From the NCBI GenBank assembly GCA_000934665.2, contig JYFJ02004191.1:1-34027 (forward strand): 34,027 bases of DNA. The letters run 5' to 3'. The translations under genes and the position numbers were made by a program. The notes under the pieces are model-generated. The model did not search any database, was not told the origin of the DNA, and was given only the letters and a program-made list of their open reading frames with translations. This stretch comes from Catajapyx aquilonaris (lineage: Eukaryota). Below are positions 2,228-32,877 of the stretch, piece by piece. Positions within the stretch are counted from its first letter, which is position 1. Each line of letters begins with the position of its first letter.

Positions 2228-3599
2228 TACAATATTTCCTTACTAACTTTGTAATGCCACTGTGGCCATGGCAATAGTAAGTACTTTGAGTTTACAACGA
2301 AAGTGTGTGGGCAGCTCCCAACGCAAAAGGAATTGTAAGATTTGACAAATTTCTTAACATACAAAGGTATGCAAATAATTAAGAACACATCACTTTTCAT
2401 GACAACAATTGATTGAATTTTGCAAAACGCTGGTACCTGACTGGCATAACCTGACAAAACAATATCATTGACACAAATCTTCACGTCTTTTACTACAGCT
2501 GACACAATGGCCCTAGTTACATAATAAACCAGAGAAGACAATCCAAAGAAAAGCCACCTGAGTCTCAAAATGCTCATCCGCTTCTTCCGAATGCACAATG
2601 GTCACTCTGGGAAAGACCAAGCCGACATCTGGACATGTCTTTTGTGGATCATTGTTTATTCCAGATTCTGCCACTTCTGTTGCATTATCCTCCACATCAT
2701 CACAATCATCCCTGCAGTCATAACCTGAAATGATCAGAAAACATTAGTAAACATTCCTGAGCACTTCAATGATGCAACTCTCAGCTGACTTGTGGTGCCT
2801 TCCCCAGTGACTACTGTGCTGTCAGGATCTTCATCAACCAATCCTTGAATCTGCAATGGGCACAACTTTAATGTAATTTAACTTCCAGATAAACATTACC
2901 GGCCATTTCCAATTACACATGGAGACATTCAATTTGACTGAATATAAATTACCCTTCCAGCATCACCACACCAATCCAATGATCCCTCTGGTTGGACTTC
3001 ACCTCCAGAAATGACCAGTGATGTCACACTCTCAGGTTGCAGTTCAAGTACTGGTTCCACTTTTATGGCATCATTTGATGGCTCGACAACTTCAGCTGGT
3101 TGGTGCAGTCCACATGGCATATCACTCAGGGATGTAGCAGACTGCGCGGCTGATATGAAAAAAATATTCAAGATGATTAAGAAATTGCTGTAACAGCTGT
3201 TAAAAGGTACAGTGTTTTTCATCTCAAATTGTTTGGCACTCACCGTCATACCCGTTTCCTCCCCTGGCACTGATCAGCTCCTCCAGCAGCCTCTCCACCA
3301 TCCTCTCCAGCCTCCCAATCTTCCTCTCCATGTCCTCCATCTTCCTGTTTCCTTCGTCCAAACACCGCCTGTTTCCAACCACCACATCCATCATTCTCCT
3401 CATCCACACCTGCATGTCTCCTCCTTGGTTCATGCCTGCCCACTGATCACCGAAACACCAAAAAGCGGATCCAAACACGAGGGAACAACACCCCCACGTC
3501 CTTCTGTCCAGGTTGTGGCGGCAAGTAAGGCAAACACGGCTCAAAATCAGACAAAATAAGAAGAAACGAGGTCTACAAAAGGAAAAAGAGGAAAAAGGT

Positions 3600-3698
3600 C
3601 GGCCATCTTGGAAATGTCGGGCGCATTCGAATCGCTGACAGTGCAGCAGTTTTCAAGCGACGATCCGAACGCACCTGATCATATCCAAGATGGCCGCC
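3600..3698. promoter_or_regulatory. Divergent promoter core 1 with inverted YY1/Pho-like motifs
   Basis: cggccatcttgga (3600-3612) and tccaagatggccgcc (3684-3698) point outward toward the ATGs at 3433 (-) and 3792 (+). Confidence 0.6.
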
Positions 3699-3791
3699 GA
3701 ATAATTTCCCCTTCATTTCCTTTTCCCTTTATTTTCTCTTGGAAATAAGTCGGAGTGTCCATTTCCAGTGGCTTCTCTCCAGCTGGACGCC

Positions 3792-5527
3792 ATGGAGGGA
3801 CGCTGGACACCTGGAGGAAGCCAAGGTGTGGACCTGAGGAGCGTGATGATGGCGGTGCTGGACAACAGGGACATCCTGGTCAAGCTGCAGAGGAGTGTGG
3901 ACAGGGTCGAGAGGAGGATGCAGAAGATGGAGGAACTCATGGTCGCCAGTGGGGGTCAGTATGGGGCGGTTAACAATTGGGCAGCTCAGTCAGCAAAAGT
4001 GGTTGGCCAAGAGCAAGATTTTGTCCACATTTTACATGCAAAAAGCCGTAGATTGCAGACTAGTTACTGTACCGCACAATAATACATTGAGTAATTACTG
4101 TCATCGTACTAGCCATGCCCAGAGCTGCGCTGGAGGATATACCATCACGATTGGATCAAGAGGAGGAGTTTCCATGTCATCAGGTAGTGAAACAGGAACT
4201 GGTGGGAGACCATCTGCTGGAAACTGATGAACCGGGTGCAAATGAGCAGGTTAGTCATGGAAGTAAATAGCCCAATTGCAGCGTAAAATGAAGGATGTTT
4301 TTATTGCAGGATGAACGATTATCGAATGAGTTTGTGGACGTGAACGGCACGGAGGCAACACGGAACAGTCAGTTGATTGTTTGTGCATGTGAAATTTCGC
4401 TTGACATTTAATTATTTCTACAGGCTTTGACTACAGAGCTAGTGGTTTCGATGCTGGAGGCGAGGCAGAAATTCAAGCGGGACCTGTCATCATGCAAGTT
4501 ACGTCGGCGGTTAATTCGGATTCTATCTCATTGCCGTCTAACAGAATCACGGGACAGGAAGAAGCGGAAGCATATTTGGAAACTCAGGTATTACTTGCAG
4601 CATGTTAGCTTTTATTCCAGTTGCCTTGCACTTCAAACAGCAAGAGATTTGTTCTCAAAAATATTTTCCTTGCTGAAATCATAACTGCCCATTTCATTAC
4701 TTTTGTAGGGATCGCAGGTGCAAGACGTCAAGAGTGAAAATGTATCCCTGCAGTGTAAGGTGTGCTCCAAGATGTTTTCTCATCAATGGGAACTAGAAGA
4801 ATCTGAGAAGTCACGTGAAAGTGGTGCGGATGGGGACAAGAACAAGTCGAAAAGTCGAGGTAGGAGACATGGTAGTGAAGAGACATCTCAGGACGGGGAA
4901 GGAAACAAGACTGAGGACATATCGACTGAAAGAACAACCCTGGCTGAAGGAAAAAGGAAGAAGACTAAGAAAACACCGTCTGCAAGGAAAAGTGTCCATG
5001 AGTGCACCTTTTGTACCTACATAGCTCCGAAAAAGAGTAAATTGATCTTGCATTTGAGAACTCATACTGGGGAGAAACCCTATTCATGTAAACTATGCGC
5101 TCTGAAATACACTTCCCAACGTTCATTGACAAAGCATGTAAAAGCCATTCACCTGCGAGAGAAACCACATGCTTGCATCCACTGCACTAGGAAGTTTTTT
5201 AACAAAGACAAATTGATGCGCCATGTAAAATCAGTTCACCTTGACGAAAGACCATTTGAATGTAGCAGTTGCCCTCTGAAATTTTCTGAGAAGAGTGGCT
5301 TGACGAGGCATGTAAAATCATCTCACCAGCGAGAGAAACAATATGCTTGTGAATTTTGTTCTCGGAAATTTGCTCGCAAATCTAGCCTGCAGTGTCATCT
5401 AAATGCAGTACACCTTGAATTGAAACCGTTCACCTGTTCATTGTGTGAAAATAAGTTTTCCCAAAAATCCTATCTCAATTTCCACATGAAGAAGGTTCAT
5501 AACCGGGGAGAAAAACGTAGCTTTTAG
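3792..5527 (+). CDS. Coiled-coil + 6x C2H2 zinc-finger protein (gene 1), about 446 aa, 5 exons
   Basis: Exons 3792-3954, 4113-4249, 4310-4367, 4424-4587, 4709-5527. All introns are GT-AG with phases 1,0,1,0, totalling 1341 nt. N-terminus MEGRWTPGGSQGVDLRSVMMAVLDNRDILVKLQRSVDRVERRMQKMEEL, an acidic linker with VKQE, then the finger array with HTGEKPY. Confidence 0.88.
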
Positions 5528-6436: not shown

Positions 6437-7523
6437 CTATCTCACATTATGGACTTCCATGTGCCTTGTGAGTATGGCACTCTTGGGAAATTGCCTTCCA
6501 CACACCGAACAGACGTACGGTTGCATTCCAAGGTGAATGGCATTTAGATGACGCTTCAGGTTGCTCTTATGAGCAAATGTTTGAGGACAAAAGTCGCATG
6601 CATAGGGTTTCTCCCCAGTGTGAGTTCTTATATGGGTCATCAATTTACTATTTGACGCAGCTTTGTATGAACAAAAGGTGCAAATATTATGCACAGGATT
6701 ATTCACTGCAGATGGTATATTCATAGTCTTCTTTTCTTGCTTCTTTCTCTCTCCTTCAGCCAGGGTTTTACTCTCAGGTGATATGTTCTCAGTCTTGTTT
6801 CCTTCCCGGTCCTCGGATGTCTCTTCCTTGTCCTCATCAAAAATTCCGACCTTCCAGTCCTCCTTTGAACAGAAGAAAAGTGCAAAAAATTACATACCGC
6901 AGTCCGCAATTTCTTTGCGACTACATAGTTGGAAGAAAGCTGTATATATCGACAAGTTTTAACCTGTATTCATGAAGCATTTTTATAAAACTGAGGACGC
7001 AATTATTAAAAGGGAAGCTACCTGAGTCTCAAAATGCTTGTCCGGTTCTTCCGAATGCACAATGGTCACTTTGGGACGGGACGGGCCGACATCACCAGAT
7101 AAGACCTGAAATGTCACGCTCTCGGGTTGCGGTTCAAGTTCTGGTTCCACTTTTACGGCATCATTTGATGGCTCGACAACTTCAGCTGGTTGGTGCAGTC
7201 CACATGGCATATCACTCTGGGATGTAGCAGACTGCGCGGCTGATATGAAACAAATATGCAGGGTGATTAAGAAATTGCTGTAACAGCTGTTAAAAGGTAC
7301 AGTGTTTTTCATCTCAAATTGTTTGGCACTCACCGTCATACCCGTTTCCTCCCCTGGCACTGATCAGCTCCTCCAGCAGCCTCTCAACCATCCTCTCCAG
7401 CTTCCTAATCTTCCTCTCCATGTTGTCCATCTTCCTGTTTCCTTCGTCCAAACACCGCCTGTTTCCAACCACCACATCCATCATGCTCCTCATCCACACC
7501 TGCATGTCTCCTCCTTGGTTCAT
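6437..7523 (-). CDS. Coiled-coil + 3x C2H2 zinc-finger protein (gene B), about 277 aa, 3 exons
   Basis: Exons 7523-7334, 7239-7022, 6862-6437, all GT-AG and in frame (834 nt). Paralog of gene A. Confidence 0.85.
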
Positions 7524-7680
7524 GCCTGCCCACTGATCACCCAAACACCAAAAAGCGGATCCAAACACGAGGGAACAACACCTCTACGTCCTTCTGTCCA
7601 GGTTGTGGCTGCAGGTGAGGCAAACCCGGCTCAAAATCAGTCAAAATAAGAAGAAACGAGGTCTACAGAAAGGAAAAGAG

Positions 7681-7783
7681 GGCGGCCATCTTGGATATGC
7701 TCCGGGCGCATTCGAATCACTGACAGTGGAGCAGTTTTCAAGCGACGATCTGAACGCACCTGATCATATCCAAGATGGCCGCC
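7681..7783. promoter_or_regulatory. Divergent promoter core 2 with a perfect 19-bp inverted repeat containing YY1/Pho-like motifs
   Basis: ggcggccatcttggatatg (7681-7699) and catatccaagatggccgcc (7765-7783), between the ATGs at 7523 (-) and 7877 (+). Confidence 0.6.
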
Positions 7784-7876
7784 AAATAATTTCACCTTCA
7801 TTTCCTTTTCCCTTTATTTTCTCTTGGAAATAAGTCAAAGTGTCCATTTCCAGCGGCTTCTCTCCAGCTGGACACC

Positions 7877-10747
7877 ATGGAGGGACGCTGGACACCTGGA
7901 GGCAGCCAAGGTGTGGACCTGAGGAGCGTGATGATGGCGGTGCTGGACAACAGGGACATCCTGGTCAAGCTGCAGAGGAGTGTGGACAGGGTCGAGAGGA
8001 GGATGCAGAAGATGGAGGAACTCATGGTCGCCAGTGGGGGTCAGTATGGGGCGGTTAACAATTGGGCAGCTCAGTCAGCAAAAGTGGTTGGCCAAGAGCA
8101 AGATTTTGTCCACATTTTACATGCAAAGAGACATAGTTACTGTACCGCACATTGATAAATTGAGTAATTGCTGTCATTGTACTAGCCGTGCCCAGAGCTG
8201 AGCTGGAGGATCTACCGTCCCAACTGGATCAACAAGAGGGATATCCATGTCTTCCGGTAGTGAAACAGGAACTGGGACATGGTCTGCTGGAAACTGATGG
8301 AAATGATGAACAAATTGCAACTGACCAGGTTAGTTACGGATGTTAATTTAAATATTGCAGTGTAAAATGAATGATCGTTACATTCCAGGATGACGGATTG
8401 GCGAATGAGTCTGTAGACACCGGATGCATGGAGACGACAAGTAACAGTCAGTTAATTGAAACTTGTGCGTATGAATTTTCTGTTGACGTTTCATTACTTC
8501 CACTGGCTTTGACTGTGACGACACTGAAGAAAACGAGGGGGAAATTCCAGAGGGACCTATCATCATGCAAGTAACATCAGAGGTTAATGTGGATGCCAGC
8601 TCATCGCCTTCTAACAAAATGCTAGAGCAGGAAGAGGCGGAAGCATATATGGAAACTCAGGTAATATTTGCGGTGAGTTTACTTTAAATTCAAATGATGT
8701 TTTGTGCTTGATTAACTTCCACTTAGTGCTTAGTAAGCTGTGGTACGATAAATTTATAATGTAATATGTTCCTAATAATATTACAGTAAAAGGTGAAGCT
8801 ACCATAATATTCTGTTACATAATTTTCATATATTTTTTTTTCCACCTTTGAAATGGTGCATTAGGTGCTACAGATTTTAATGTACTTTTTATTGCTATTG
8901 TAGATGCTTTAATCTTTTGAATTGCAAAATTGTCCACTAAAACTGTCATTATGATGTAAAAATAATTGGTGTACAATGTGGGACTTTACCTATAGTTAAT
9001 AAATTCTCCCTTTATTTTAAACCAAGGGGGACTGGAAGGAAGGCATTTTAAGTACAAGGGAAGAAAATGTTCGTAACAGCGTGAGGAGTGGAGAATCCGT
9101 TGCAGTACAAAGAGTGGCGAGCATAATAATACAGTAGTTAGAAAAAGCAGAAATGTCAATCCTGAGAATGTCGATGAAAATTAATTGTGATTACTCAGTA
9201 GTTGTTGACTGAAGTATGTAAATTTTTGCACATTTCATATACTCAAAGGAGGACTGGAAGTTCGGCACATTAGATTGGGATGAGGAACATGTGGCAACCA
9301 GTATGGAAGAAGAAGCGACCCTGCAAAGGAATGTATGTCAACTATTTTTTGAACATTCAAAACGAAGATCATGGCCTCTTTGAAGAATTTTCAGGCATTA
9401 TGCGACTTGCTTCTGGACAATGGGTGATTGTGGCCAATTTTTTTAGTGACATTTTTCACTAACAGTAATTCGAATGAAGGAAAAGGATGATGTGCTACAT
9501 TGCAAAAACCCCCATTTTAAGCGTTGCCACATTGTGCAAATGCCATTGAGCCAGCATTTTTATTGAATATAAGTTATATGCTGCTTTAAAAAATTGGCCA
9601 TCAACTACTACTACTACTACCTTATAAATAAAAATTGTAGGAAGATCATAGTGTGGCCTTGTTAAGTTAAGTTAAGTTAAGAGTAACTATCGAAAGAAAT
9701 TCTAGTCCCACCAAAAATTACCTGCCGGACTGAAAGCTCGATCATTTGTTATGCTCCTATTGCACATGCACAGAGCATTAAACTGGGTTAGAATCGCACA
9801 TGAATGGGGGTTATGCCCATTTATGACAGGTATAGAATCCTATTCCTGAATAGTTCGAACAGCACAGCTCTCGTCTGAGTTTTGTCCTCAATTTTAAAAA
9901 TGCTTTTTATCTTGCTGAAATCATAACTGCCATTTCATTACTTTTGTAGGGATCGCAGGTGCAAGACGTCAAGAGTGAAAATGTATCCCTGCAGTGTAAG
10001 GTGTGCTCCGAGATGTTTTCACTGCAATGGGAACTAGAAGCATGTGAGAAGTCACATGAAAGTGGTGAGGATGGGGACAAGAACAAGTCAGAAAGTCGAG
10101 ATGGTAGTGAAGAGACATCTCAGGACGGGGAAGGAAACAAGACTGAGGACGTATCGACTGAAAGAACAACCCTGGCTGAAGGAAAGAGGAAGACTAAGAA
10201 AACACCGTCTGCAAGGAAAAGTGTCCATGAGTGCACCTTTTGTTCCTACCAAGCTCCGAAAAAGAGTAAATTGATCAAGCATTTGAGAACTCATACTGGG
10301 GAGAAACCCTATTCATGTGAACTATGCGCTCAGAAATACGCTTCCCAAGATTCATTGACGAAGCATGTAAAAGCCATTCACCTGCCAGAGAAACCACATG
10401 CTTGCGTCCACTGCACTATGAGATTTCGTGACAAAGGCAAATTGATGCGCCATGTAAAATATGTTCACCTGAGCGAAAGACCATTTGAATGTAGCAGTTG
10501 CCCTCGGAAATTTACTCAGAAGAGTGGCTTGACGAGTCATATAAAATCATTTCACCAGGGAGAGAAACCATATGCTTGTGAATTTTGTTCCCGGAAATTT
10601 ACTTGCAAAGCCAGCGTGCAGCGTCATTTACAAGCTGTTCATCTTGGATTGAAACCTTACACTTGTTTAGTATGCGGAACTAAGTTTGCCCAGGATGCAA
10701 ATCTCACCGCCCACCTGAAGATCCATAACCGGCGTAGAGCAACGTAG
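7877..10747 (+). CDS. Coiled-coil + 6x C2H2 zinc-finger protein (gene 2)
   Basis: Exons 7877-8039, 8186-8328, 8389-8446, then exon 4 ending at 8660. Its paralogous acceptor reads TG at 8504-8505, with an in-frame CAG available at 8548-8550. Then optional 9027-9116 (GC donor), 9249-9332 and 9950-10747 (finger array). Confidence 0.78.
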
Positions 10748-10900: not shown

Positions 10901-11960
10901 TCCAGGTTGTGGCTGCAGGTGAGGCGAACTCGGCTCAAAATCAGTCAAAATAAGCGGAAACGAGGTCTACAGAAGAAAAAAGAGGAAAAAGGTCGGCCAT
11001 CTTGGAAATGTCGGGCGCATTCCAATCGCTGACAGTGCAGCAGTTTTTAAGCGACGAACCGAACGCACCTGATCATATCCAAGATGGCCGCCAAATAATT
11101 TCCCCTTCATTTTCCTTTTTCCTTTATTTTCTCTTGGAAATAAGTCCGAGTGTCCATTTCCAGCGGCTTCTCTCCAGCTGGACGCCATGGAGGGACGCTG
11201 GACACCTGGAGGAAGCCAAGGTGTGGACCTGAGGAGCGTGATGATGGCGGTGCTGGACAACAGGGACATCCTGGTCAAGCTGCAGAGGAGTGTGGACAGG
11301 GTCGAGAGGAGGATGCAGAAGATGGAGGAACTCATGGTCGCCAGTGGGGGTCAGTATGGGGCGGTTAACAATTGGGCAGCTCAGTCAGCAAAAGTGGTTG
11401 GCCAAGAGCAAGATTTTGTCCACATTTTACATGCAAAAAGCCGTAGATTGCAGACTAGTTACTGTACCGCACAATTTGAGTAATTACTGTCATTGTACTA
11501 GCCGTGCCCAGAGCTGCGCTAGAGGATCTACCATTGGATCAAGAAGAGGACTTCGCAAGTCATCTGGTAGTGAAACAGGAACCTGGAGTGGGAGACGATC
11601 CGCTGGAAATTGACGGAAACGATGAACACCAGGTTAGTGACTGAAATAAATGCCGCATTGCAGCGTAAAATGATTACATTGCAGGATGAACGATTGGCGA
11701 ATGAGTTTGAGGACACCAGATGCACTGAGACGGCGATGAACAGTCAGTTTGATTCAAATTTGTGTGTATGAATTATCTGGTGACGTACAATTACTTCCGC
11801 AGGATTTGACTGTGGCGCTAGTGATTACGATGCTGAAGGCGAGGCAGAAATGCAAGCGGGACCTGTCATCATGCAAGTAACATCAGAGATCAATTCGGAT
11901 CCAAGCTCATTGCCGTCGAACAGTATCACGGCACAAGAAGAAGCGTATTTAGAAGCTCAG
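10901..11960. repeat. Third copy of the promoter plus 5'-exon duplicon (others at about 3505-4590 and 7595-8660), lacking the minus-strand partner gene
   Basis: Homology starts abruptly at tccaggttgtggctgcagg (10901). YY1-like pair at 10994-11006 and 11078-11092. Confidence 0.85.
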
Positions 11961-14789
11961 GTATTTACTTGCAGCATGATTATAATTTTAAATGGAAAAG
12001 CTCAGTTTTTTTCCATAATATTCTGTCGCATTATGAAAATCTGGGACTGAAAATTGCAATTTTGCCATCTTTGAAATGCACACAGTAGGTGCTACAAATT
12101 ATTATTGACATGGTAGACGTTCAAATTTTTTAATATTGCGAAAAGTGTTCACGGAAACTGATTTAAAAATAAGTGATGTACAACTTGGCAATTTCTTATA
12201 AATTAATTAATTCTCATATTATTTCTAACCAAGGAGGAGTGGAAGGATGGCATTTTAATTGCACTGGATGAAAATCGTCACACCAACATCGGAGAATCAG
12301 CGGGAGGACAAACAGTGGTGAGTGTTCAGCTTCCAAAAGGACGGAAATGTCAAATCCTGATGCAAATTAATTGTCATTACGAAACTTGGGATATTGAGGT
12401 TCATAATTATTGCAAAGTTATGCCGTCATATCCATGTCTCTAATAGTGAAACCATGAAAAATGGATTCTGAAGCATGAATTAGGATTCAGAATAATTGTC
12501 TGATCGGCATGTCACTAAGTAGCTAAAATAATGCTCAATTAATCTGAGACAATTAAGCACATTAAGCTCCCAGTTTCTAATGGCAAGAAAATTGGTTGCA
12601 TTTATTAGACCCTAATTGTCTGAACTGCGAGTTGATTTCACGGAAAGCCCCGACTTACGTAGACCTAGACGTCATGCACAAAAATTAACAGAATCGGCAA
12701 AAGAAACTGGTAGATCCTAAAATGCTGCTAATTGTGAGCATTTAATTGCGGCATGTGAATATTTTCATTTTACATTTTTTTGTTTGTTTAATTCCATTGA
12801 AAAGGGCGGTGGAAAAAAGCGTTCGTCTGACGGAAAGGGGGAGACATCTCGAAAGCGTCGTGTAATCAACTTGGAGACCAAAATGAGCATCATCAGTAAA
12901 CACGAAGGCGGCCAGACCATGACCTCAATTTCTCACGAACTTGGCTACGCACTTTCTACAATCAACACTATCATCAAAGACGCCAGCCGCATACGAGAGT
13001 ACGCTAAAAGTCCTGCCGCCACGAAGTCAGCGATAATCACTAAGAAACGCGAAGGTGCAATTAACGAGATGGAGAATTTGCTGTCGATTTGGTTGGAAGA
13101 GCAGGCTCGAAGGAATGTTCCTCTGAGCGTCCAGTACATTCAGGAAAAGGCCAAAAGCATTTTTGAGGACGTCAAGGTCAATTATCCGGATTGCCTGCAA
13201 ACCTTCTTGGCCAGCAAGAGTTGGTTGAAGCGCTTCAGGAGTCGGGCAGGGTTTCACAACCTGAAGCTCTCTGGCGAGGCCGCCAAGACTAAAAACAAAG
13301 ACCCTGAGTCGTACTGTCCGGAACAGTTTAACGTCAGTGAAACTTCTTTTGCCGTTACAACCACTCCAGTTACCACCACCTCAAGCGATACGAAGGAATA
13401 AGGTACGCTGGATTCCATGGCAACCAGGTCCTCAGTCTTGGCTCACGGCTTGTGAAAGAACGTTATTGTGGCTTTGCCATCTCTGTGAACTGTGAGAGAA
13501 TGTTATTGTGGCTTTGCCATTTCTGTGAGAGAATGTTATTGTGGCTTTGCCATCTCCGAGCGAATGTTATTGTGGCTTAGCCATCTCTTTCTTATTAATC
13601 GGAAGCTGGGAGCTGTGAGCGAATGTTATTGTGGCTTTGTCATCTCCGAGAGAGAGTGTTATTGTGGCTTTGTCATCTCTGTGAGAGAATGTTATTGTGG
13701 CTTAGCCATCTCTTTCTTATTTATCGGAAGCTGGGAGCTGTGAGCGAATGTTATTGTGGCTTTGTCATCTCCGAGAGAGAGTGTTATTGTGGCTTTGTCA
13801 TCTCTGTGAGAGAATGTTATTGTGGCTTTGCCATCTCTTATTAATCGGAAGCTGGGAGCTGTGAGCGAATGTTATTGTGGCTTTGTCATCTATGTGAGAG
13901 AATGTTATTGTGGCTTTGGCATCTCTGTGAGAGAATGTTATTGTGGCTTTGCCATCTCTTTCTTATAAATTGGAAGCTGGGAGCCGGGATTGGGGACAGT
14001 CCATAAACATGGTCCGAGTGACAAAAAAATCCAAGCGCGACAACAATTCGCTTACGTAAGTCGGGGACTTTCTGTGCAAGTCCGCTGTAAAAAGTGTGGG
14101 AGCAAAATGAGATTAGCAGTTAATTAACTAGGCATAAGTGCATAAAAATTCGCAATTTTTCAAAGACATTTTCCTTACAGGAGCCTGCAGCTTGTGAGAC
14201 GTTGCATGAAGCTGCGGATAACAGTGTGGGTGAGACTAGCAAGGCTGCTGGAAGAGGAAGTTCTGACCGTGTGAAAGGAAAGAAGAAGGATGCGGACAAA
14301 CCAGGTGGAAGCAAGCAGGTTAACGAGACGCCTGACGACATCGACGATGTTGTGCACGAGTGCGGAATATGTTCCTACCCAGCCAAGTCGAAGTCGGGGC
14401 TGGCTGTGCACATGCGCCGTCACAAACACAAAGGGCATAATAAACTGCACATTTGCACCGTCTGCGGCCAGCAATTTAACCAAAAGGGCCATCTGAACAA
14501 TCACGTAACATCCATACATTTGAAAGAGAAGCCATACCCTTGCGAGTATTGCCCCCGTAAATTTTCTCAGAACAGCAACCTAAAAGTTCATGTCGAAGCA
14601 GTTCACTTTGGACTGACGCCTTTTCCGTGCCCAGAGTGTGGGCAGGGGTTCAAGAGCCGACGTAGCATGGATGTCCACGTGTACAAGCAACACAAGGAAA
14701 AGGAGCCCTACTCTTGTTCTACGTGCGAAAAGAGATTTCGCAGCAACAAGTGTCTCAAACTCCACATGCGTCTTCATGACACTCCATGA
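11187..14789 (+). CDS. Coiled-coil + 5x C2H2 zinc-finger protein (gene 3), about 400 aa
   Basis: Exons 11187-11349, 11502-11632, 11685-11742, 11803-11960, 12234-12317, 14181-14789. All GT-AG and phase-consistent. AATAAA near 14827. Confidence 0.82.
12805..13401 (+). CDS. CENP-B/Tigger transposase-derived DNA-binding region (HTH_psq + HTH_Tnp_Tc5); candidate alternative terminal exon of gene 3
   Basis: Sequence RKRRVINLETKMSIISKHEGG...ISHELGYALSTINTIIKD...MENLLSIWLEEQ...IQEKAKSIF...FLASKSWLKRFRSR. A long T-rich tract and AAG acceptor at 12802-12804 lie in phase 0. The DDE domain is absent beyond a degenerate YCPEQFNVSETSF. Confidence 0.75.
   Translation, partial: GGGKKRSSDGKGETSRKRRVINLETKMSIISKHEGGQTMTSISHELGYALSTINTIIKDASRIREYAKSPAATKSAIITKKREGAINEMENLLSIWLEEQARRNVPLSVQYIQEKAKSIFEDVKVNYPDCLQTFLASKSWLKRFRSRAGFHNLKLSGEAAKTKNKDPESYCPEQFNVSETSFAVTTTPVTTTSSDTKE
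13456..13985. repeat. Minisatellite with ~31-bp core gagaatgttattgtggctttgccatctctgt and longer variant units ending ggaagctgggagc
   Basis: Tandem copies are directly visible. The ORFs here are just repeat translations (ECYCGF...). Confidence 0.92.
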
Positions 14790-15100
14790 TTCTGATGTGT
14801 ATCGTCTAATTTCTTTCCCCAGGGTAATAAACTGTTCAGCTTAATCTAATTTAACATTTTTCTGATGCAAGTTCGATCCCTGCGGGTTCTCTCTATATTC
14901 ATGTGGGTTTTCTCAGGATCTTTTATTTCCTCCCATTTGAAAAGCCAGTCAGCAGCGGCCAAAATGAATGACGTTGTATCAAGTCGATACACTTTTGCTT
15001 TGATATTTCGTTGTCCATAATCTCGATGTCGAAAATAGTCGCAAACAATTTCAGCGTAATAATAAACAATATAGGCCATGACCATACTAATATTATGAGT

Positions 15101-17805
15101 TTATGCTTTTTGTAAAATGCCCGCAGCCATGCTGAACCTCGATGCCACCAGCGCAACGGCTGTCCCTGAAAGAACGGTTAGTAAACGTGGGACAACGAAC
15201 AAGAAATTAACAAATGCGCAACGTACCAAATTGCGCGGCCACAACCGCTGTTCGGCTTCTTTCTTTTCCAGAAGTTCAGCAACAGCCGTGTGGCCTCTTC
15301 GGATTGCAAAATGTCGTGCGGTGTAGCCGTATAACGCAGGTCTTTTTCTCGTATCTGCCCCCTTTTCCAAGAGGTGCCTCACAATTTCAAGGTGGCCGAA
15401 CCATGCGGCGTACTGCAACGGCGTGAGACCTTCTTCGTCTTCTCCGTCCACCTCTGCCCCGAGGTCAACCAGGAGGCGAACCACTTCCAGCTGACCGTTC
15501 ACCGCAGCCGCATGAGCCGCAGTCATCTCCCTTCTTGTCTCGTCCGTTAAACCAAACACCCACCAATTTACGACCCAATGAACTATTGAGACTTGCGGTA
15601 ACTCCCGACATGTATGATCCGACATTGCTGTGATGTTCACACCTTTTTTTATCCAATCCGCTACCTCCGTCAGACTACCCTTTCTGCATGCTTCAGCAAA
15701 ATTCCATATAGGAACCTGAAGAATACGACTAATGATTGTCCATACTGTTACGAGATGATAATGCACTTACTTTTTCAGACTCGGCCAGCAGCCATTGCTT
15801 CATTTCGGTCTCAATGTAAAGAGCGGTTGGACGACATGATGGGACGCTGCTCGTCATGGACTTGAGAAGCTCCTTTTCATCCGGATTCAGCTGCGAGTCC
15901 ACCTCTTCTGGGAGTGGATTCTGGCTTCTGAGGGACTCGAACGCTTCGTTCCGTAGTTTCTTGTTGGCGCCAAACGGAACCAGCATCTCCAACAGGATCA
16001 ACCCCATTGAAAATACATCTGATCGCTCGTCGTAATCGTTTTCGTCGAGTCTTTCTGGCGACATGTACAGCCTAGTTCCGATGCATGACGATTCCTCATC
16101 TCCATTGGAAGCCCAACTGGTGCTAAGGCCGAAGTCCCCGATTTTAATACACTTCCCGTCAAGCGACAGGAAAATATTGTGCGGCTTGAGATCTCGGTGG
16201 ATGTATCCTTTGTCGTGAATGTAACATACGCCTGATGCAATCTGCTGGAAGTAGCTCATGTTGGTGTATTTGTACGTTACGTTGCTGTTGTTAAGCTTGT
16301 GTCCGAGCGTTTCTTCCTGGCATAGCTCCAGCTGCATGTAGAGAAAGTCAATGGTTGGGCCGGTCAGGATCGTTTCAGAGGTGAAGTACTCCGAAGCTCT
16401 TTCCGACGCTTCGGGAGTCGACATGTAAGTAAAAAGCATTGCGTCCAGTTCCGCCTGGACCCAACCCGGCGGATTTTCCTCCCATACATGATGGCACTTG
16501 ACGACATTCTCGTGGCTCAGATTCATCAATGCGCGGACCTCCCTCAGAACCACCAACTTTTGTCGACCATCCGGCAACTGGACTCGCTTCACTGCGAACA
16601 TGGCCTGAGCCAGCTTCAACTCCGCCTTCAGTACGACCCCAAACGACCCGTTTCCTATGAGCGACTTGTGATTGAAGTCGTGCATATACCTCGACTTGAA
16701 TGGTATGTCGACAGTAGTTCTGCGGAGAAGTACAACAATTAAATATTGGTAAAACAATGTAATAAGTGCATACCTGTGAATTTTCTGCATGTGTCGCATT
16801 AGTATCTGATGAGCTTTGACGTGGCCTTTGAGAAATGCAAGGCTGGCCGCAGTTCCTTTTGTTCCGTCCTGGGCATGCGGGTCAGCACCTGTTCTCAGAA
16901 GCAACTGGACAACATCCGAGTGTCCCGAATGCGCCGCAGCATGAAGTGGAGTGCGGCCTGTCTTCGAGCAGATGTCCACTGCGGCATGGTTGTCCAGCAA
17001 GAGTTGGCATATGTCCACATGTCCGTTCCTGGCTGCCTCGTGCAACGCTGCATTTCCATCCAGATTTTGAGCATTCACGTCACAATCCGATGCGGCCAAG
17101 AGCAACCGACATGCTTCGGTGTTGCCCATACGAGCTGCCAGAATCAGCGGTGTCTCCTGATACTGGTTGCGCTCATTTGCATTGTACCCATCCGGCAGTG
17201 GCATGCGACAAGCGGCCGCAATATGCACATCATTCGGCGCAGAGACCAGAAACTTTGCAAATTCAGTCCGGTCCTGGTTAGTCGCAACCATGAATGGAGT
17301 AAGCTTCTCCGCATTTTTACACTCCAGGTTTGCACCTCCCTCCAACAGCAACCGTCCGACTTGGATATGCCCTCCGTACGCAGCCGTGTGCAAAGGAGTG
17401 TCCAGCGTCACTGTCATCTGTTGCATGTCCGCACCGTGGTCCAGCAGCATCCTGCAGATCTGTACGTGTCCGTTAGCAGCAGCATTATGCAGAGCCGACA
17501 GATGGTTGCGGTAATCCTGTAATTTTATTGTCATTGTTATCATCCAGAGTATATTTGGTACACAGAGAACATTATCATATTGCCTGAGCATTGACTGAAG
17601 CACCATGTAGCAACAGCAGCTCGCACACTGACGGGGATCCCAACCCAGCGGCAACCATCAGAGCGGTGGTGCCCCGCCTGGTGGTTGAGTCCACTCTGTC
17701 GCCTCTCTCCAGAAGGGTGCGAACCAAGGTTGCTGATCCAGTAGCCGCGGCACAGTGCAAGTCAGGTACGCTTGCGTCGCTCTCCAGCAACTCTGCGCAG
17801 GCCAT
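15101..17805 (-). CDS. Ankyrin repeats + PERK-like eIF2-alpha-family Ser/Thr kinase + ankyrin repeats + hydrophobic C-terminal tail, about 842 aa, 4 coding exons
   Basis: Exons 17805-17584, 17516-16774, 16719-15771, 15715-15101 (2529 nt, in frame). Introns are 67 nt (GC-AG), 54 nt and 55 nt (GT-AG). Ankyrin motifs include TALMVAA, SALHNAA, TPLHTAA, TPLILAA, TPLHAAA and TPLQYAA. Kinase motifs are GNGSFG, FAVK, LREV, HRDLKPHN, DFG, GTRLYMSPE and DVFSMG. Confidence 0.85.
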
Positions 17806-24061: not shown

Positions 24062-24859
24062 TTCAAAGCAGCTGCGTTTCATTCGACCCGCCATGTTCGA
24101 TTCAAGATGGCCGCTCCGAAGGAATGGAATTTCTCGATTTCTCCTCACATTTTTGGCAATATTCGAGCTTTTCGTGGCGTGGATGACCTTTTGGACTAGA
24201 GGAGAAGACTCTGGGGGCTGCCCCGGGTTCGGGGAGAGTAGAACAGGTAATGATTGCTGCCTACCAGCACCTCCATAAGATCACTGATCACTAGAGTAAA
24301 GATTTAATAATGATCACTAGTTAATATTAATGACAAATATGACCTTGAATGTCTAAAATTAGCAAACAAATATATTTTTTTTGCACATTTTAATGTCCGC
24401 AGAGAAGACTAGTGCCTTACTTCCAGTTACTTCCAGGATTTGTCAGCGTGTGCCTTTACCCTGGAGCTGGAGAAAAAGGAGAATTTTTTGCTGGAGGCTT
24501 GAAAGGACTTTGAAAGACTCCCTGGAACAACTTGGAACAACCGGTAATAATTTTTTGGCCTGAGTCGACATGAGTGAGCTGGATTTAGCATTTGGGCATT
24601 GGCCGAGTATCCCTGAGAATGCACGTGATAATGTACCCACTGGTTACAATAATACAGCAAATGCGAAAATCTGGAGTTCGTCAAGATTGGTAATGAAAGC
24701 CAGATTCTTAACACTGTGAGATTCCGCAATTCACTTCTTGAATTATTGCATGTTTAATAGTACTCATTGACTTCCCAATAGCGAAAAAGTAGCGAGAGGA
24801 ATGTTTAAATTTTACGTACAGAAAGTACCCTGTTTAATGATGCTTCAATTTTCCAGGCC

Positions 24860-26365
24860 ATGCCAAGAAGGAGACAGCCTCAAAGTCTGAGACACTTGAG
24901 TGTGAGCTGCCTGGCCAGCACTGTCCTGCAAGTGTCCAAGCGGAGCAACGGCCACAATCAGGATGGGATCAGCCAATTTGTGCAAGACATTCCGGAGATG
25001 TTTGCGAACGAATACGTATTGAAGATACTCAGGTTGTACTCAGAGGCGAAAGACGCAGCCTACAGCATTAGCCGTGCATTTCATCCCAAATGCACCAAGA
25101 TTACCGCAGAAGATGGAATGGGCTATTTGACACTCCCGTCACATAGTTACTGCCAATTGTTTATGAATCTGCATGTTATGAATGAGCTGCAGGTTTTTAA
25201 AGCTTTCTTTTGCGGGAGGGACGAATCTGCTGTTCACGATGTGTTAAGATCTCATCCGTTTCCCAATCTGAGCAAACTCCGTGAAGTTTCGATAACGCAA
25301 ATTCCAGATGCACAACACCTGGAGCAGGTGATTGAAAATTGTCCGCTCCTGGAGAATGTGATGACTGAAGGCCTCTTGACACGCGATATTCACATTGTTT
25401 CAAGCTGCAGGCACCTTAAAACATTTTGGGCTTATCCCATTAATCCTGATGTTGCCGTACATCTGCTTGAGAACCTGCCCAACCTGGAATGTCTGAGTAT
25501 TGAAAATGTGCCCCAATTGTTGCCACTCTGTACACGGGCATATCCTTTGAAGCGATTTGCTTCGTATGTGAAGCCAATCGGAGTCGCTGACATACCAAAG
25601 CTCGTGACCCACTTTCCGCATCTGGAAGATCTAAACCTAAACATTGATAGTGACGCAGATGCAAGCCCCATTAACCATCTCCTAGGCCTCAAACGCTTCA
25701 TAATAAGAAGAGGTTCGGCTTCCAGACTTGTCTGCCTGAGAGACGTTCTCATGGGTCGTATTTCCTGGTTAACAATTCTTAATGTCACCAACCTTAATTT
25801 GTTGTTCTCACTAGAGATGAAGCTTCCAAGCGCACAGCTCAAATCCCTGATAATTTCAGGATGCACTGGCATCAACGTGGCTGCCATCGGTCAGATATTT
25901 CCAGATTTGCAGTCACTCGACTTGTTTGGCAGTGAATTCGAACCTCTTCCTCCATGCCAAATGATGACAGGTTCTGCTTTTCAAGCACTTGAAGAATTGA
26001 AGATTAATCAGAATGTGCCGATGGTTCATGCTAAATATCTGCTGTCAGCATCCGGCAACAAATTAAAGGAACTCCAATTGTCCAACTCATCAGACGTTTC
26101 GACTGCATGTGAACTTCTGTCTGGAGCTAGACTGAAGGAGTTGCGTGAAATCGTCGTGAGTGACGCGAAGGTGACAAAAGATGTCATCCCAATAATTTTG
26201 GCTGCATGCGGAGATCACTTGGCAGTGGCAAGTGTGTGCGGTGATAATATGGAAATGTCAGTGGATGAAGACCTTGCGTTGAAAAGTCAGTTGCGACCGT
26301 ACGACATGATCTTTGATGTCTCAACCCCAGTCACATTTGGGTTGTTAGATGTGAATGGCAATTAA
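24860..26365 (+). CDS. Leucine-rich-repeat protein with N-terminal BC-box-like motif (LRR gene 1), 501 aa, intronless CDS
   Basis: Uninterrupted ORF with LxxLxL repeats (LPNLECLSI, FPHLEDLNL, FPDLQSLDL) and N-terminal PQSLRHLSVSCL. The acceptor tttccag|gccATG implies a spliced 5' UTR. Confidence 0.88.
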   Translation: MPRRRQPQSLRHLSVSCLASTVLQVSKRSNGHNQDGISQFVQDIPEMFANEYVLKILRLYSEAKDAAYSISRAFHPKCTKITAEDGMGYLTLPSHSYCQLFMNLHVMNELQVFKAFFCGRDESAVHDVLRSHPFPNLSKLREVSITQIPDAQHLEQVIENCPLLENVMTEGLLTRDIHIVSSCRHLKTFWAYPINPDVAVHLLENLPNLECLSIENVPQLLPLCTRAYPLKRFASYVKPIGVADIPKLVTHFPHLEDLNLNIDSDADASPINHLLGLKRFIIRRGSASRLVCLRDVLMGRISWLTILNVTNLNLLFSLEMKLPSAQLKSLIISGCTGINVAAIGQIFPDLQSLDLFGSEFEPLPPCQMMTGSAFQALEELKINQNVPMVHAKYLLSASGNKLKELQLSNSSDVSTACELLSGARLKELREIVVSDAKVTKDVIPIILAACGDHLAVASVCGDNMEMSVDEDLALKSQLRPYDMIFDVSTPVTFGLLDVNGN

Positions 26366-27018: not shown

Positions 27019-29452
27019 CTAGAGGTATCGTTGCACAAAATGCCAGAACCCCATGAAGTTGACCATCTCCCTGGACCGGCTGTCTCCGTAGTCCACCTCA
27101 TACCCTGCGTACACGACCTGGCCCGAGAGACACAGGGTCAGGTCGTACATCCTGAGCTGCTTCTGCAAGTGGTACATGTCGCTCAGGAACATTGGGCTCA
27201 GATGCGCTCCGCTCAGCTGGACCTTCTCCAGGCAACTGCTGTTCTTGAAAGCCTCCAGCACCACCTCCAGTATGTCCTCTCTGAGATGGTCGCTGTCCAG
27301 GTTCAGACTACGAAGGTTTATCGCTGGATTCCTCCTGGAACATTGGTTTATTAGTAGCTTACTACTGTAGATAAAAAAACTGTGTTGCGCTCGTTTCAGG
27401 GTCGTGCGAGAGGTGGACGAAGCACTAACTTGTTTATCTGCACAAGTACTTGAACCGTGACTGCGTTGCATCCCAGCAGCTCCAGTGACTCCAGTCCTTG
27501 ACACGAGCACAGCAGGAACTGGAGGTGGTCTTCCTGGACGTTGTCGGTGAAGACGATGGACAGAGACTGCAACGTGTGGAATGGCGTGTCCGTGTACGGC
27601 GAGGCCACTTCGGTCACCTCGCATTCCTCGATGCACAGGTGCTGAAGGTTCGGGAACACCTCGCTGATACCGGACACGTCGACGTCCTCGCACATGTACA
27701 GGCTAAGGTTCTGGACGTTCGGGAACACGGATTGGTCGTACCTCTTGATGGTGATGTCCACCTGAGACGTGTCTATGAGGGTGAAAGTGGTCAGGCGACG
27801 CAGACACGGTCTCAGCTCGATGGTCAGGAAAGGAAGAGGGTACGTGCTGCTCTCGATGGTCAGGTCCACCAGGCCGACCAGCTGGTTGAGCGGTGCCAGC
27901 GGAGTGGACACGTTGGTCAGCCTGACTATGAGCACGTCCAACAAAGGGAAGTGACGCACCAGCCTGTCCAGGACACCCGGGTCGTTATCGATCGGGGTCT
28001 GAAAGTCCTTCAGGTTGTACCTCTGGTCCTGGAACTCGCTGAGGACCCCGGACATGTTCGGTACCGACAGGACCTCCGATAGACAAAGACAGTCTTTTAT
28101 TAATATTATAATACTCGCTGCGACACCCGGCGTTGCTCGGGAAGAAATGAACGGAAAGCAAGCTGAAAAGGACATGCAAAAAAAACATGTAATTAAGAAT
28201 CTTAATTAAAGCAAGATTAAAGGAAGGACGGGAGAGGTTGGGAGGTGTAGGAGGCGGACCACAGATGGCAGGCATATGGGTTATTGGCGTTCCAGGCGGA
28301 CAGACAGACAGATCACAAACGGCTTTATTTGTATAGAAGATATGAATTAATGAAGAATTTGCCAAAACTTGGCAACACCGCCCGGACCGTGGACTTAGTA
28401 CCACATCCCTCACATAGATGGCACACACTACTCGGACAAACAGGGGGCACAGACCCAAGCCTTGGCAACGTCGCAAACGTCGGCCAATTTGTTCTCCCGT
28501 TGGTGTTTGTGTCATCTGTATGGCTTTTGGGTGACCGCACCAGTGCTGTCCGTCTTGTGGCGCCGAAGCCCAACGAACGTTATTGTGGCTTGACCGCCGC
28601 TGCTTACTGTTGGTGTCATCTAGTGAGGCGCTGGAGTGACCGCATCTGGATTTGTGGCCCTGCCAGGCACGGTACGTCGCGATTGCCCGGCGTGGGTTGT
28701 GTATCCGCGACATTACTGCCCGTCTTGTGCGCCGCAGCCCAACGAACGTTATTGTGGCTTTGCCAATTTGCCATTTGTTTAAAAAATATCGGAATTCTGT
28801 AAATATGAGTTACCTCCAGTAGTGGCAGGGCGTCCAGGATGTATATGATGTCTTCTGCCGTCGCTTCGGGACAGTCCACCAAGGCCTTCTGGAGGTGTCC
28901 GAAGCTGGTGAGCAACAGGAACTGGTTTGTGGACATCGGATAGAGCAGCTGGATCCTCTCCAGCTGGTGACAATGTCTGATCAATCCGTTCATCAGCTGG
29001 GGCTCGACCGGTACTGGAAGCTGCAGATCTCGGACGCTCTTCATCCTGTGGACGTTCTCGATGGCGATTCTGTCGTCGAAGTCGGACGGAAAGTATATCC
29101 CGGCCCTCAAGGTGGTCAGGTCCGGCATGGCGTCCAGGTTGTCGAAGAGCTGGCGACACACGACGGTCGAGATGACCGTTCGTATGTCCGCGCACATGTA
29201 GGACAGGTCGACGTCGTCGCATCGCGGATGGAACGCGTCTCGAAGGCTCACCTCCGCGTCGCGACTCCAACGCTTCCTGGATGCCAGATCCAGCAACGTG
29301 TAGACGTACGCGTTGGCCAGGTGCGGCGGAACGCGTCTGACGTACCACCGGACACCCTCGTCGTTCTTGCCGGCCAGCTTCTCACACGCGTCGATGACCG
29401 CATGAGTCACACAGTGTAGCGACAGACCTTCCAATGTCTTCCTCTTAGGCAT
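27019..29452 (-). CDS. LRR protein with BC-box-like N-terminus (LRR gene 2), about 532 aa, 3 coding exons
   Basis: Exons 29452-28814 (MPKRKTLEGLSLHCV...AFHPRC), 28073-27430, 27334-27019, totalling 1599 nt. The junctions LPLLE|VLSVPN and QINK|RNP restore alignment to the paralogs. Confidence 0.8.
28114..28340 (-). mobile_element. Non-autonomous Helitron-like element in LRR gene 2 intron 1
   Basis: The minus strand begins TC (tcttctatacaaataaag), carries a (tctg)n tract, and ends with hairpin ccgagcaacgccggg and a CTAG-like CGAG|T. Confidence 0.6.
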
Positions 29453-30009
29453 TGCTACATCACAAAAACAAGTGAAAACTGGCAACACCGTGCGCGTAGT
29501 ACCACATCCCTCACATAGATGATGGCCACCATCAGGGTAATGCGAGTGGCTACGCGAGGGATGTGGTACTACATGCACTTGTCGCCCCCCGGACACTAAG
29601 AATATGCATACATTACACTAATTGACATCACTTGCCTTAAATTCAGGGTGTGTGGTGACTGGCAGATTCGCGCAATTAATGTGATTAATAAGTCCTAATT
29701 TGACTAGGTATTTTAAAAAACGGCAAGTCCAGGATTACAACAATTTTTTTCGATTAATAATGAGAAGGGCATAGCTTAGCAACAGTGAAGTACTTGGATT
29801 AACGGCTCTCTGACTGTCAGGCCAACGAACGTTACTGTGGCTTTGCCACCGCCGCCGCCTGGTGTCATCTGTGAAGCGTTGGAGTGACCGCACCAGTACT
29901 TTGTGACGCTCATAGGCCCGGATTCCAACAATGTTTTGAACTAATAACGAAGTGAGTACCGGTATCTCAGCAACAAGTACTCGATTATTGCCAATCTTTT
30001 ATTACTTAT

Positions 30010-32821: not shown

Positions 32822-32877
32822 CTGGAAGTGTACAGAAGATGAGTCATTCACACAAATTTTCTCGTCAAAATATCTGC

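Follow-up and report, generated by a model that had tools for sequence, protein, structure and literature searches.

The question raised by this locus is whether a transposon fragment in the last intron of a zinc-finger gene provides that gene with a second terminal exon, or whether it is a passenger that leaves with the intron. The window, a stretch of 34,027 nucleotides from Catajapyx aquilonaris (contig JYFJ02004191.1), contains a tandem family of C2H2 zinc-finger genes, and the fragment lies in its third member, gene C. A preliminary description had read the locus as a host-transposase fusion, in which one splice donor serves either a double helix-turn-helix (HTH) of CENP-B/Tigger type or an array of five zinc fingers. 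Most documented instances of transposase capture by alternative splicing come from tetrapods. Cases caught before the loss of the parental exon are informative, as they show the transposon's parts (acceptor, DNA-binding domain) against those of the host. From the evidence set out below, the locus is probably an ordinary intronic transposon relic, and at most it may be an initial stage on the way to a new fusion gene.

Table. Features of gene C and of the element in its last intron, in window coordinates.
Feature	Positions	Strand	Basis
Exon 1, gene C; 54-residue helical N-terminal module	11187..11349	+	ATG at 11187
Exon 2, acidic linker	11502..11632	+	X5 contig 24 covers 11528-11629; GT..AG joint to exon 3
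Exon 3	11685..11742	+	X5 contig 24, joints 11632>11685 and 11742>11803, both GT..AG
Exon 4, phase-0 donor	11803..11960	+	X5 contig 24, joint 11960>12234, GT..AG
Exon 5, 28 codons, phase-0 donor GTG/GTGAGT	12234..12317	+	X5 contig 24, contig end 12318
Whole internally deleted pogo/Tigger-type element, 1,444 bp, last intron, sense	12636..14079	+	Inverted ends; transposase remnant inside
Left inverted end	12636..12661	+	24 of 27 alignment columns identical to right end
Candidate acceptor AG at ancestral transposase ORF start	12803..12804	+	Sequence context
Remnant transposase ORF: paired CENP-B-like HTH (residues ~20-150), disordered tail, TAA stop	12805..13401	+	Pfam, phmmer, PDB profile, structure model
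GT after HTH stop (AAG/GTACGC), possible donor	13403..13404	+	Sequence
Tandem array, 33-nt unit in 125-nt higher-order repeat, 13 copies of 22-nt core	13451..13984	+	Repeat analysis
Right inverted end	14053..14079	-	Paired with left end
Last exon, linker and five C2H2 fingers	14181..14789	+	Pfam; X5 contig 26 covers 14180-14862
AATAAA	14826..14831	+	37 nt past finger-exon stop

Gene C is expressed and spliced with its C2H2 finger array. Five runs from two studies contain the locus, and one of them, X5, is RNA-like, its kind not being on record. X5 contig 24 runs through exons 2, 3, 4 and 5 across joints of GT..AG type, which the DNA runs lack, and X5 contig 26 is headed by eight loose letters equal to 12309-12316, which indicates the junction 12317>14181. 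This is the only continuation of exon 5 observed in X5. The finger exon, which ends with a stop codon at 14787-14789, gives five zf-C2H2 matches in Pfam (E 9.1e-24), in agreement with the five fingers counted in the preliminary description. At the start of exon 5, an AAG-type acceptor is demonstrably in use; the joint between exons 1 and 2 is inferred only.

The front end of the gene family has been homogenised between paralogs. Exon 1 of gene C shows 0-1 differences in 163 nt to those of paralogs A and B, and both the N-terminal helix and the first intron are nearly identical across the family. The exon 1 peptide, for which the preliminary description had proposed a coiled coil, was modelled from single-sequence input as one long helix (residues 15-52, pLDDT 86.9). 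Pfam assigned it to no family, its matches in the protein atlas were unnamed hypothetical clusters only, with recognition under the useful level, and a search against longer proteins returned five candidates, none of which scored.

The intron insert is a non-autonomous DNA transposon of pogo/Tigger type, as judged by its paired HTH and its terminal inverted repeats (TIRs). The inverted ends share a perfect 14-nt core (12648-12661 and 14053-14066), which matches twice in the window against an expectation of 0.08, a count that was reached in none of 100 shuffles. The preliminary description had called these ends decayed; they are indeed not perfect, but with two mismatches and one gap in 27 columns their decay is only slight, and less than had been implied. 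Searches for a longer TIR, or for a TA duplication further out, found neither. The two bases outside the CAC...GTG ends, where the exact tips of the element are uncertain, read TT and CA; according to Gao et al. (PMC7386202), the target-site duplication of pogo elements is TA, and these flanks hint at an element of some age.

The remnant open reading frame spans 12805-13398 and is closed by a TAA at 13399-13401, the stop to which the preliminary description had already traced it. Its first in-frame ATG, at ~12883, corresponds to residue 27 of the exon; the ancestral start codon of the element is gone and, as noticed before, no ATG precedes the HTH domain. In Pfam searches, residues 88-151 matched HTH_Tnp_Tc5 (E 1.2e-12) and CENP-B_N stayed under the cut-off (14.8 vs 21.2 bits). 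A profile of 58 family members matched both subdomains of the CENP-B DNA-binding domain (1hlv) with an E-value of 6.2e-22, the identity of the HTH to 1hlv being ~26%. The AlphaFold model predicts two helical bundles (pLDDT 88-98), and a Foldseek search with it gave 1hlv_A as the sole hit at E <= 0.001 (E 1.7e-5), in agreement with the double HTH that had been proposed. Of 49 strongly conserved columns, 40 are kept, compared to a median of 39 among 120 sequences, and 48 retain the same residue class; by this sequence measure, the HTH domain is as intact as that of a typical family member.

Little is left of the remainder of the transposase. At the position of the first catalytic Asp, the element reads ...PEQFNVSETSF, compared to ...IFNVDETGL in the full-length relatives P0005 and P0007, which bears out the reported change of Asp to Ser and the loss of the catalytic domain. 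Pfam found no DDE_1 match in the element, and tblastn searches with six relatives as queries located only their residues ~1-197 and nothing beyond. Because DDE_1 is missing, the Asp is replaced and only residues ~1-197 are present, this copy is non-autonomous. Its nearest full-length relatives are DDE_1 pogo-type transposases. Searches of the HTH exon against longer proteins gave 863 candidates, none of which scored; among proteins of near length there was one match (58% identity over 31% of the query), and long protein matches to the frame did not exceed 53% identity. Neither an ortholog nor an annotated isoform of either kind appeared in protein searches with HTH and exon 1 queries.

This type of HTH is predicted, from sequence, to be fused to other host domains elsewhere. 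Among the 150 best relatives, 17 place the HTH at least 90 residues into the protein, and six of the eight that were scanned with Pfam carry a KRAB, SCAN, BTB or zf-FCS domain. Pogo-derived genes include CENP-B-like genes, TIGD and POGK. The frame studied here shares the paired HTH fold with CENP-B (1hlv), TIGD and POGK; unlike them, it lies between transposon ends and has no start codon of its own.

The splice anatomy on which the fusion proposal was built is present in full. Exon 5 ends at 12317 with a phase-0 donor (GT at 12318-19), and the two acceptors, at 12804 and 14180, are both where they had been placed and match its phase: AG 12803-04 would open a candidate HTH exon at 12805 and AG 14179-80 opens the finger exon at 14181, each in phase 0. 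A usable T-rich tract precedes AG 12803-04. Compared with 117 relatives whose HTH is N-terminal, the start of the candidate exon falls exactly on Met1 in 25 and within one residue of it in 49. The sequence presents one feature expected of a host-transposase fusion: a transposase-derived domain forms a putative exon of its own within a host gene, and a candidate splice site marks the beginning of its ORF. The GT at 13403-04, reported as a donor behind the stop, is there as well and might act as one. The splice-ready acceptor had been taken as support for the fusion. An AG in phase does exist, but all six AG dinucleotides in 12721-12871 are phase-compatible, as AAG and GAG codons abound in the HTH frame, and an in-frame acceptor is therefore expected by chance. 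Further, the intron from the HTH stop up to 14180 contains neither AATAAA nor ATTAAA. No joint into 12805 was seen in X5, which has no cover on 12374-13445 and so speaks neither for nor against such a joint.

The open frame had likewise been cited in favor of a fusion. Open it is, but its survival is compatible with neutrality at the rough ages that can be given to the element (P about 0.01-0.4). These ages were estimated from the mismatches of the ends, the flanks and the divergence of the array units, of which the three complete 125-nt ones differ pairwise by 1.7-7.2%; with counts this small and an array of such uncertain history, no firm age can be given. For the 594-nt frame, the probability of remaining open by neutral survival, which is to be read as a range and not as a test, is 0.15-0.39 at 2% divergence and 0.014-0.12 at 4.5%, the span to which the array units and the arms of the ends point, and 0.0001-0.04 at 7-10%. 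Among the contigs of three DNA runs from one sample, we found no sibling copy at least 80% alike over 12106-13445, which indicates that the element does not belong to an abundant young family, and the HTH frame may for this reason be older than the rough dating suggests. Many near-identical copies, which the preliminary description had named as evidence against itself, were thus absent from these runs, where one bridging contig and no second one at least 80% alike were recovered. Its proposal that the fusion protein is retargeted to Tigger TIRs genome-wide gained no support: in the same three runs of one sample, no second contig was at least 80% alike to the left end or the ORF, and thus there is no sign of cognate ends genome-wide.

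We propose the following course of events for the relic that we consider probable. A pogo/Tigger-type transposon would have inserted, in gene orientation, into the last intron of gene C and lost its catalytic and C-terminal coding parts, in whose place the tandem array is now found, while retaining the 5' leader, the part coding for the N-terminal paired HTH and both inverted ends. With exon 5 joined to the finger exon (12317>14181), a junction that is observed, the element would be removed with the intron. The HTH frame would be open since there has been too little time to break it, and AG 12803-04 would be a by-product of a Lys/Glu-rich ORF start next to a T-rich leader. The element would then be a splice-compatible passenger and not a working second terminal exon. 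By a rule given by Gao et al. (PMC7386202), a transposase sequence with flanking TIRs is a transposon and not a domesticated gene; domesticated pogo sequences are expected to lack flanking TIRs or TSDs, and here inverted ends stand on both sides.

On the side of the relic we count the TIRs, the DDE_1-type relatives, the restriction to residues ~1-197, the 12317>14181 message, the occurrence of AATAAA only after the finger-exon stop, the phase compatibility of all six AGs and the neutral survival of the frame at 2-4.5% divergence. On the other side stand the intact HTH, the loss of the start codon with an AG and T-rich tract nevertheless at the ORF start, the use of an AAG-type acceptor at exon 5, the lack of a sibling at least 80% alike in the DNA contigs, the low neutral probabilities at 7-10% and the TT/CA flanks.

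A nascent or established host-transposase fusion, in which some transcripts splice 12317 to 12805, is possible, but we consider it unlikely. Its product would consist of the family's N-terminal helix, the acidic linker and the CENP-B-like paired HTH instead of the five fingers, and its message might end at a weak intronic poly(A) site or continue from GT 13403 into the finger exon as 3' UTR, in which case the stop would lie 1-3 nt ahead of the join. The agreement of the exon start with Met1 of the relatives argues for this, as do the preservation of the HTH domain after the loss of the element's own ATG, the GT behind the HTH stop, the lack of a second copy at least 80% alike in the DNA contigs and the predicted fusions of this HTH type with KRAB, SCAN, BTB and zf-FCS. 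A weak and ambiguous hint comes from X5 contig 24, whose end at 12318 is the final base that all three possible continuations share; the assembly graph may have branched there. Since its overlap with the following contig amounts to just ~10 letters, a gap in coverage would account for this end equally well. Against the fusion speak the continuation of exon 5, observed into 14181 only, the lack of a canonical poly(A) hexamer downstream of the HTH stop, the chance expectation for an in-frame AG, the compatibility of the open frame with neutrality at the estimated age, the TIRs, which are still there (by the rule from Gao et al., PMC7386202), and the lack of an ortholog or annotated isoform in the protein searches. 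The preliminary description was right in its anatomy; on the fusion itself the data cannot tell.

The more specific proposition, that the fusion has been caught at a two-isoform stage, where the pogo HTH exon and the finger exon compete for a single phase-0 donor, seems to us improbable. If a 12317>12805 message exists, the locus would be a clean invertebrate case in which both endings occur next to each other; if not, it is a useful negative control for how splice-ready a sense pogo relic can look. Since such a relic easily acquires this look, with AGs in phase and an open frame, anatomy alone should not be scored as a fusion.

According to Cosby et al. (bioRxiv 10.1101/2020.05.07.082677), the route to host-transposase fusions begins with a transposon located in a zinc-finger gene's last intron, with an acceptor directly ahead of the transposase ORF; an acceptor placed at the ORF start is used in eight of nine traced vertebrate fusions. 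One fusion, KRABINER of vespertilionid bats, joins ZNF112 to the mariner Mlmar1. Our locus resembles KRABINER and the other tetrapod fusions in having a sense DNA transposon within the last intron of a zinc-finger gene, a parental finger exon that is still there and in use, and a transposase DNA-binding domain that would replace the fingers behind a host N-terminal module. It differs in that it offers a candidate anatomy only, that its host module is an unclassified helix and not KRAB, that its transposon is pogo-type, has no catalytic domain and keeps recognisable inverted ends, and that the genome is not a tetrapod one. With non-autonomous deletion derivatives of pogo/Tigger elements, as portrayed by Gao et al. 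(PMC7386202), it shares inverted ends of at most 40 bp, an N-terminal CENP-B-like coding part, a deleted body and nearest full-length relatives carrying DDE_1. In contrast to them, it has no intact TA duplication and no sibling at least 80% alike in the DNA contigs, and its deleted part is filled by an array based on a distinct 22-nt motif that is itself dispersed.

Translation from the ATG at ~12883 could also yield a stand-alone HTH protein of ~172 residues without a catalytic domain, for instance a repressor-like truncated transposase, transcribed from the element leader. Several relatives start at the same Met (query residues 23-27 align with their residue 1, for example in P0005, P0024, P0035 and P0048) and the frame is open to 13401, but we regard this as very unlikely, since in the model this Met lies where the first predicted helix (H23-34) begins, so that the basic N-terminal arm kept by relatives would be lost, and no sibling elements were seen as targets in the DNA contigs.

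The array, which occupies the place of the missing catalytic and C-terminal coding parts, has a 22-nt core that forms a dispersed family of its own, with ten further copies at 28575-31158 and, in the DNA runs, many contigs and loose ends, and this would suit a view in which the inverted ends and the array make up one repeat-bearing element and the HTH piece is an unrelated older fragment. That view we hold to be hardly credible, as the window has just two occurrences of the 14-nt end core, neither of them next to the other arrays, the left end, the 143-nt leader and the ORF start follow the ordinary pogo order, and a single DNA contig connects host intron, left end, ORF and array without interruption.

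On the plus strand of the window, a zinc-finger gene is present as three tandem paralogs (A, B and C). Gene C, modelled from the sequence with six exons, carries an internally deleted, sense-oriented transposon of 1,444 bp in its last intron, which separates exon 5 from the finger exon. The preliminary description regarded this layout as a host gene with alternative last exons, encoding either the transposase helix-turn-helix (HTH) or C2H2 fingers, and the underlying phases agree with it: the 12317 donor (GTG/GTGAGT), AG 12803-04 and AG 14179-80 are all in phase 0.

Features of the zinc-finger cluster, the transposon and the neighbouring sequence
Feature	Positions	Strand	Remark
5' parts of paralogs A, B, C	3507-4604, 7597-8616, 10901-11978	+	84-87% alike
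Last exons of paralogs A, B, C	4709-5524, 9950-10744, 14181-14786	+	C2H2 arrays
Gene C exon 1	11187-11349	+	ATG at 11187
Gene C exon 2	11502-11632	+	
Gene C exon 3	11685-11742	+	
Gene C exon 4	11803-11960	+	
Gene C exon 5	12234-12317	+	28 codons
Gene C exon 6	14181-14789	+	five C2H2 fingers (Pfam)
Inverted ends of element	12636-12661, 14053-14079		24/27 columns identical
HTH frame	12805-13398	+	open, TAA next
Tandem array in element	13451-13984		33-nt unit within 125-nt higher-order repeat, 91% matches
Further C2H2 finger ORFs	225-587, 6440-6889	-	44-51% identical to paralog A/B fingers
Long ORFs, ankyrin repeats and protein kinase domain	15104-17657	-	642 and 221 codons; Pkinase, E 7e-49
ORFs with weak leucine-rich-repeat matches	24809-26362, 27399-28205, 32236-32847		one open frame of 518 codons
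Tandem repeat	32877-33379		270-nt

The host message skips the element. X5, a sequencing run of unrecorded kind from a second study (no run that covers the stretch is recorded as RNA), behaves as RNA: one contig shows the joints 11632>11685, 11742>11803 and 11960>12234, all GT..AG and present in none of the three DNA runs. It confirms the modelled exons 2-5 and ends at 12318. A second contig spans 14180-14862 and its first eight letters are identical to 12309-12316, so the junction 12317>14181 is seen; the zinc-finger isoform of gene C is real. The two contigs overlap by only ~10 letters, and 12318 is the last base common to three possible continuations (unspliced, into the finger exon, or into the HTH exon); the contig may end there at a branch of the assembly graph or for want of coverage. 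Paralog A lacks exon 5, and an X5 loose end shows its exon 4 joined directly to its own finger exon. Look-alikes of exon 5 occur in the last intron of paralog B (9030-9116, weak, 41% over 29 residues, E 0.005) and at 6791-6862 on the minus strand, heading the finger ORF there. Counting the two minus-strand finger ORFs, there are five or more finger exons in the cluster.

The element's inverted ends share a perfect 14-nt core. The window contains two copies of it where chance predicts 0.08, a count reached by none of 100 shuffles. The left end is followed by a 143-nt leader and then by the coding frame, which is open as the preliminary description had it. Pfam assigns this frame to HTH_Tnp_Tc5 (E 1.2e-12), with CENP-B_N under the cut-off, and an exhaustive phmmer search returned 2,125 relatives at E <= 0.001, with identities of at most 53% in long matches and 65% in one 96-residue fragment. 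Since all four full-length relatives scanned against Pfam (574-609 aa) contain DDE_1, the family is pogo/Tigger-type. A 58-sequence family profile matched 1hlv, the DNA-binding domain of CENP-B, at E 6.2e-22, and the AlphaFold model (pLDDT 81.9; two helical bundles, tail disordered from about residue 160) had 1hlv_A as its sole Foldseek match at E <= 0.001. Only transposase residues ~1-197 survive. The frame stops just past ...PEQFNVSETSF, where the full-length relatives P0005 and P0007 have ...IFNVDETGL, so that the first catalytic Asp is replaced by Ser; the loss of the catalytic part was thus read correctly. The tandem array occupies the place of the missing coding sequence. At the flanks, which are TT and CA, there is no intact TA target-site duplicate of the kind expected by the rule for pogo-type elements (PMC7386202).

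We consider it probable that the element is a passenger relic in the gene C intron. Under the rule of Gao et al. (PMC7386202), its flanking TIRs class the element as a transposon rather than a domesticated gene.

That some transcripts use the acceptor at 12805, replacing helix-linker-fingers by helix-linker-HTH as in KRABINER, is a less likely alternative. The candidate exon starts exactly at the relatives' Met1 in 25 of 117 relatives with an N-terminal HTH and within one residue in 49, and a splice position at the transposase Met1 is used in eight of nine traced vertebrate fusions (Cosby et al.). However, each of the six AGs from 12721 to 12871 is in phase, as AAG and GAG codons make up the frame in that stretch, and an in-frame acceptor is therefore to be expected. 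Among the six, the 12805 site has the highest share of pyrimidines upstream (0.60), similar to verified gene C acceptors (0.45-0.70), including one that is likewise AAG. No AATAAA or ATTAAA occurs from the HTH stop to 14180, and a poly(A) hexamer lies 37 nt past the finger-exon stop. The GT at 13403 would let the HTH exon be internal, with its stop 1-3 nt ahead of the join. X5 shows no junction into 12805, a blank that counts neither for nor against usage.

In the three-step model for the birth of host-transposase fusions (Cosby et al.), the layout of gene C corresponds to step (i); a fusion transcript (ii) and selection (iii) would follow. Among the best 150 relatives, 17 place the HTH at least 90 residues into the protein, and six of the eight of these scanned with Pfam contain KRAB, SCAN, BTB or zf-FCS; fusions of this HTH type with other host domains are predicted in public proteins, and the kind is already known. 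DNA-binding-module co-option in flies is reported by a Drosophila Tc1/mariner domestication screen (PMC13548663).

As to the host module, residues 15-52 of the 54-residue exon 1 peptide are predicted to form a single long helix. The "coiled-coil effector" of the preliminary description is only a guess, since the peptide has no Pfam family and no useful match in a protein atlas search, and the helix comes from a single-sequence model. Between paralogs (11187-11501 against approximately 3790-4110 and 7880-8200), exon 1 differs at 0-1 of 163 positions and intron 1 at 1-6 of 140-152, while exons 2-4 differ by 16-31%, above introns overall (11-13%); this pattern suggests that gene conversion has acted across the 5' end. 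Whole-CDS dN/dS is 0.55-0.76, and the acidic linker looks fast-changing.

A selected function of the HTH ending appears improbable. The domain is intact: of 49 columns with a conservation of 60% or more among 119 relatives it keeps 40 (median over all 120 sequences 39), and 48 are in the same residue class. Intactness, however, argues for selection only if the element is old. By a rough clock, array units differ by 1.7-7.2% pairwise and the end arms by two mismatches and one gap in 27 columns, roughly a few percent divergence. With a probability of 0.039 that a substitution creates a stop, and assuming 0.05-0.15 indels per substitution, neutral survival of the frame has P = 0.15-0.39 at 2% divergence, 0.014-0.12 at 4.5% and 0.0001-0.04 at 7-10%. 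The open frame is suggestive of selection at most.

The preliminary description also envisaged binding to cognate ends genome-wide. In each of three DNA runs of one sample, possibly the source of the assembly, a single contig with zero differences starts at 11446 or 11491, ends at 13488 or 13519, and leads from the host intron across the left end and all of the HTH frame into the array. No second contig at least 80% alike was found over 12106-13445, where the summed depth equals that of the bridging contig in all three runs, although contig depth does not measure copy number and contigs can show that a sequence is present, not that it is absent. Two rough internal controls are a contig of 253 nt covering exon 1 and intron 1, near-identical in the paralogs, at 1.9-2.9 times single-copy contig depth, and the array region, which attracts many contigs and loose ends. 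The element thus looks like a singleton; these runs give no sign of genome-wide cognate ends, nor of the many near-identical deletion derivatives that the preliminary description named as a refuting observation.

Very improbable, finally, are a stand-alone protein started at an internal ATG and, equally, a separate origin of the inverted ends and the ORF.

The ankyrin-kinase ORFs are convergent with gene C and start ~300 nt past its stop. Within the element's array, a 22-nt core, a short part of which is palindromic, has 13 copies (13458-13954). Ten more lie on both strands at 28575-31158, some of them in further tandem arrays whose spacers differ (30688-31236). The core draws many contigs and loose ends in the DNA runs and therefore forms a dispersed family of its own, which may be a binding-site array or belong to another mobile element. 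CG stands in the first array copy (13458) and most dispersed copies, and TG or GT in all 12 later array copies (13498-13954), a CpG-to-TpG type change fixed ahead of array expansion.
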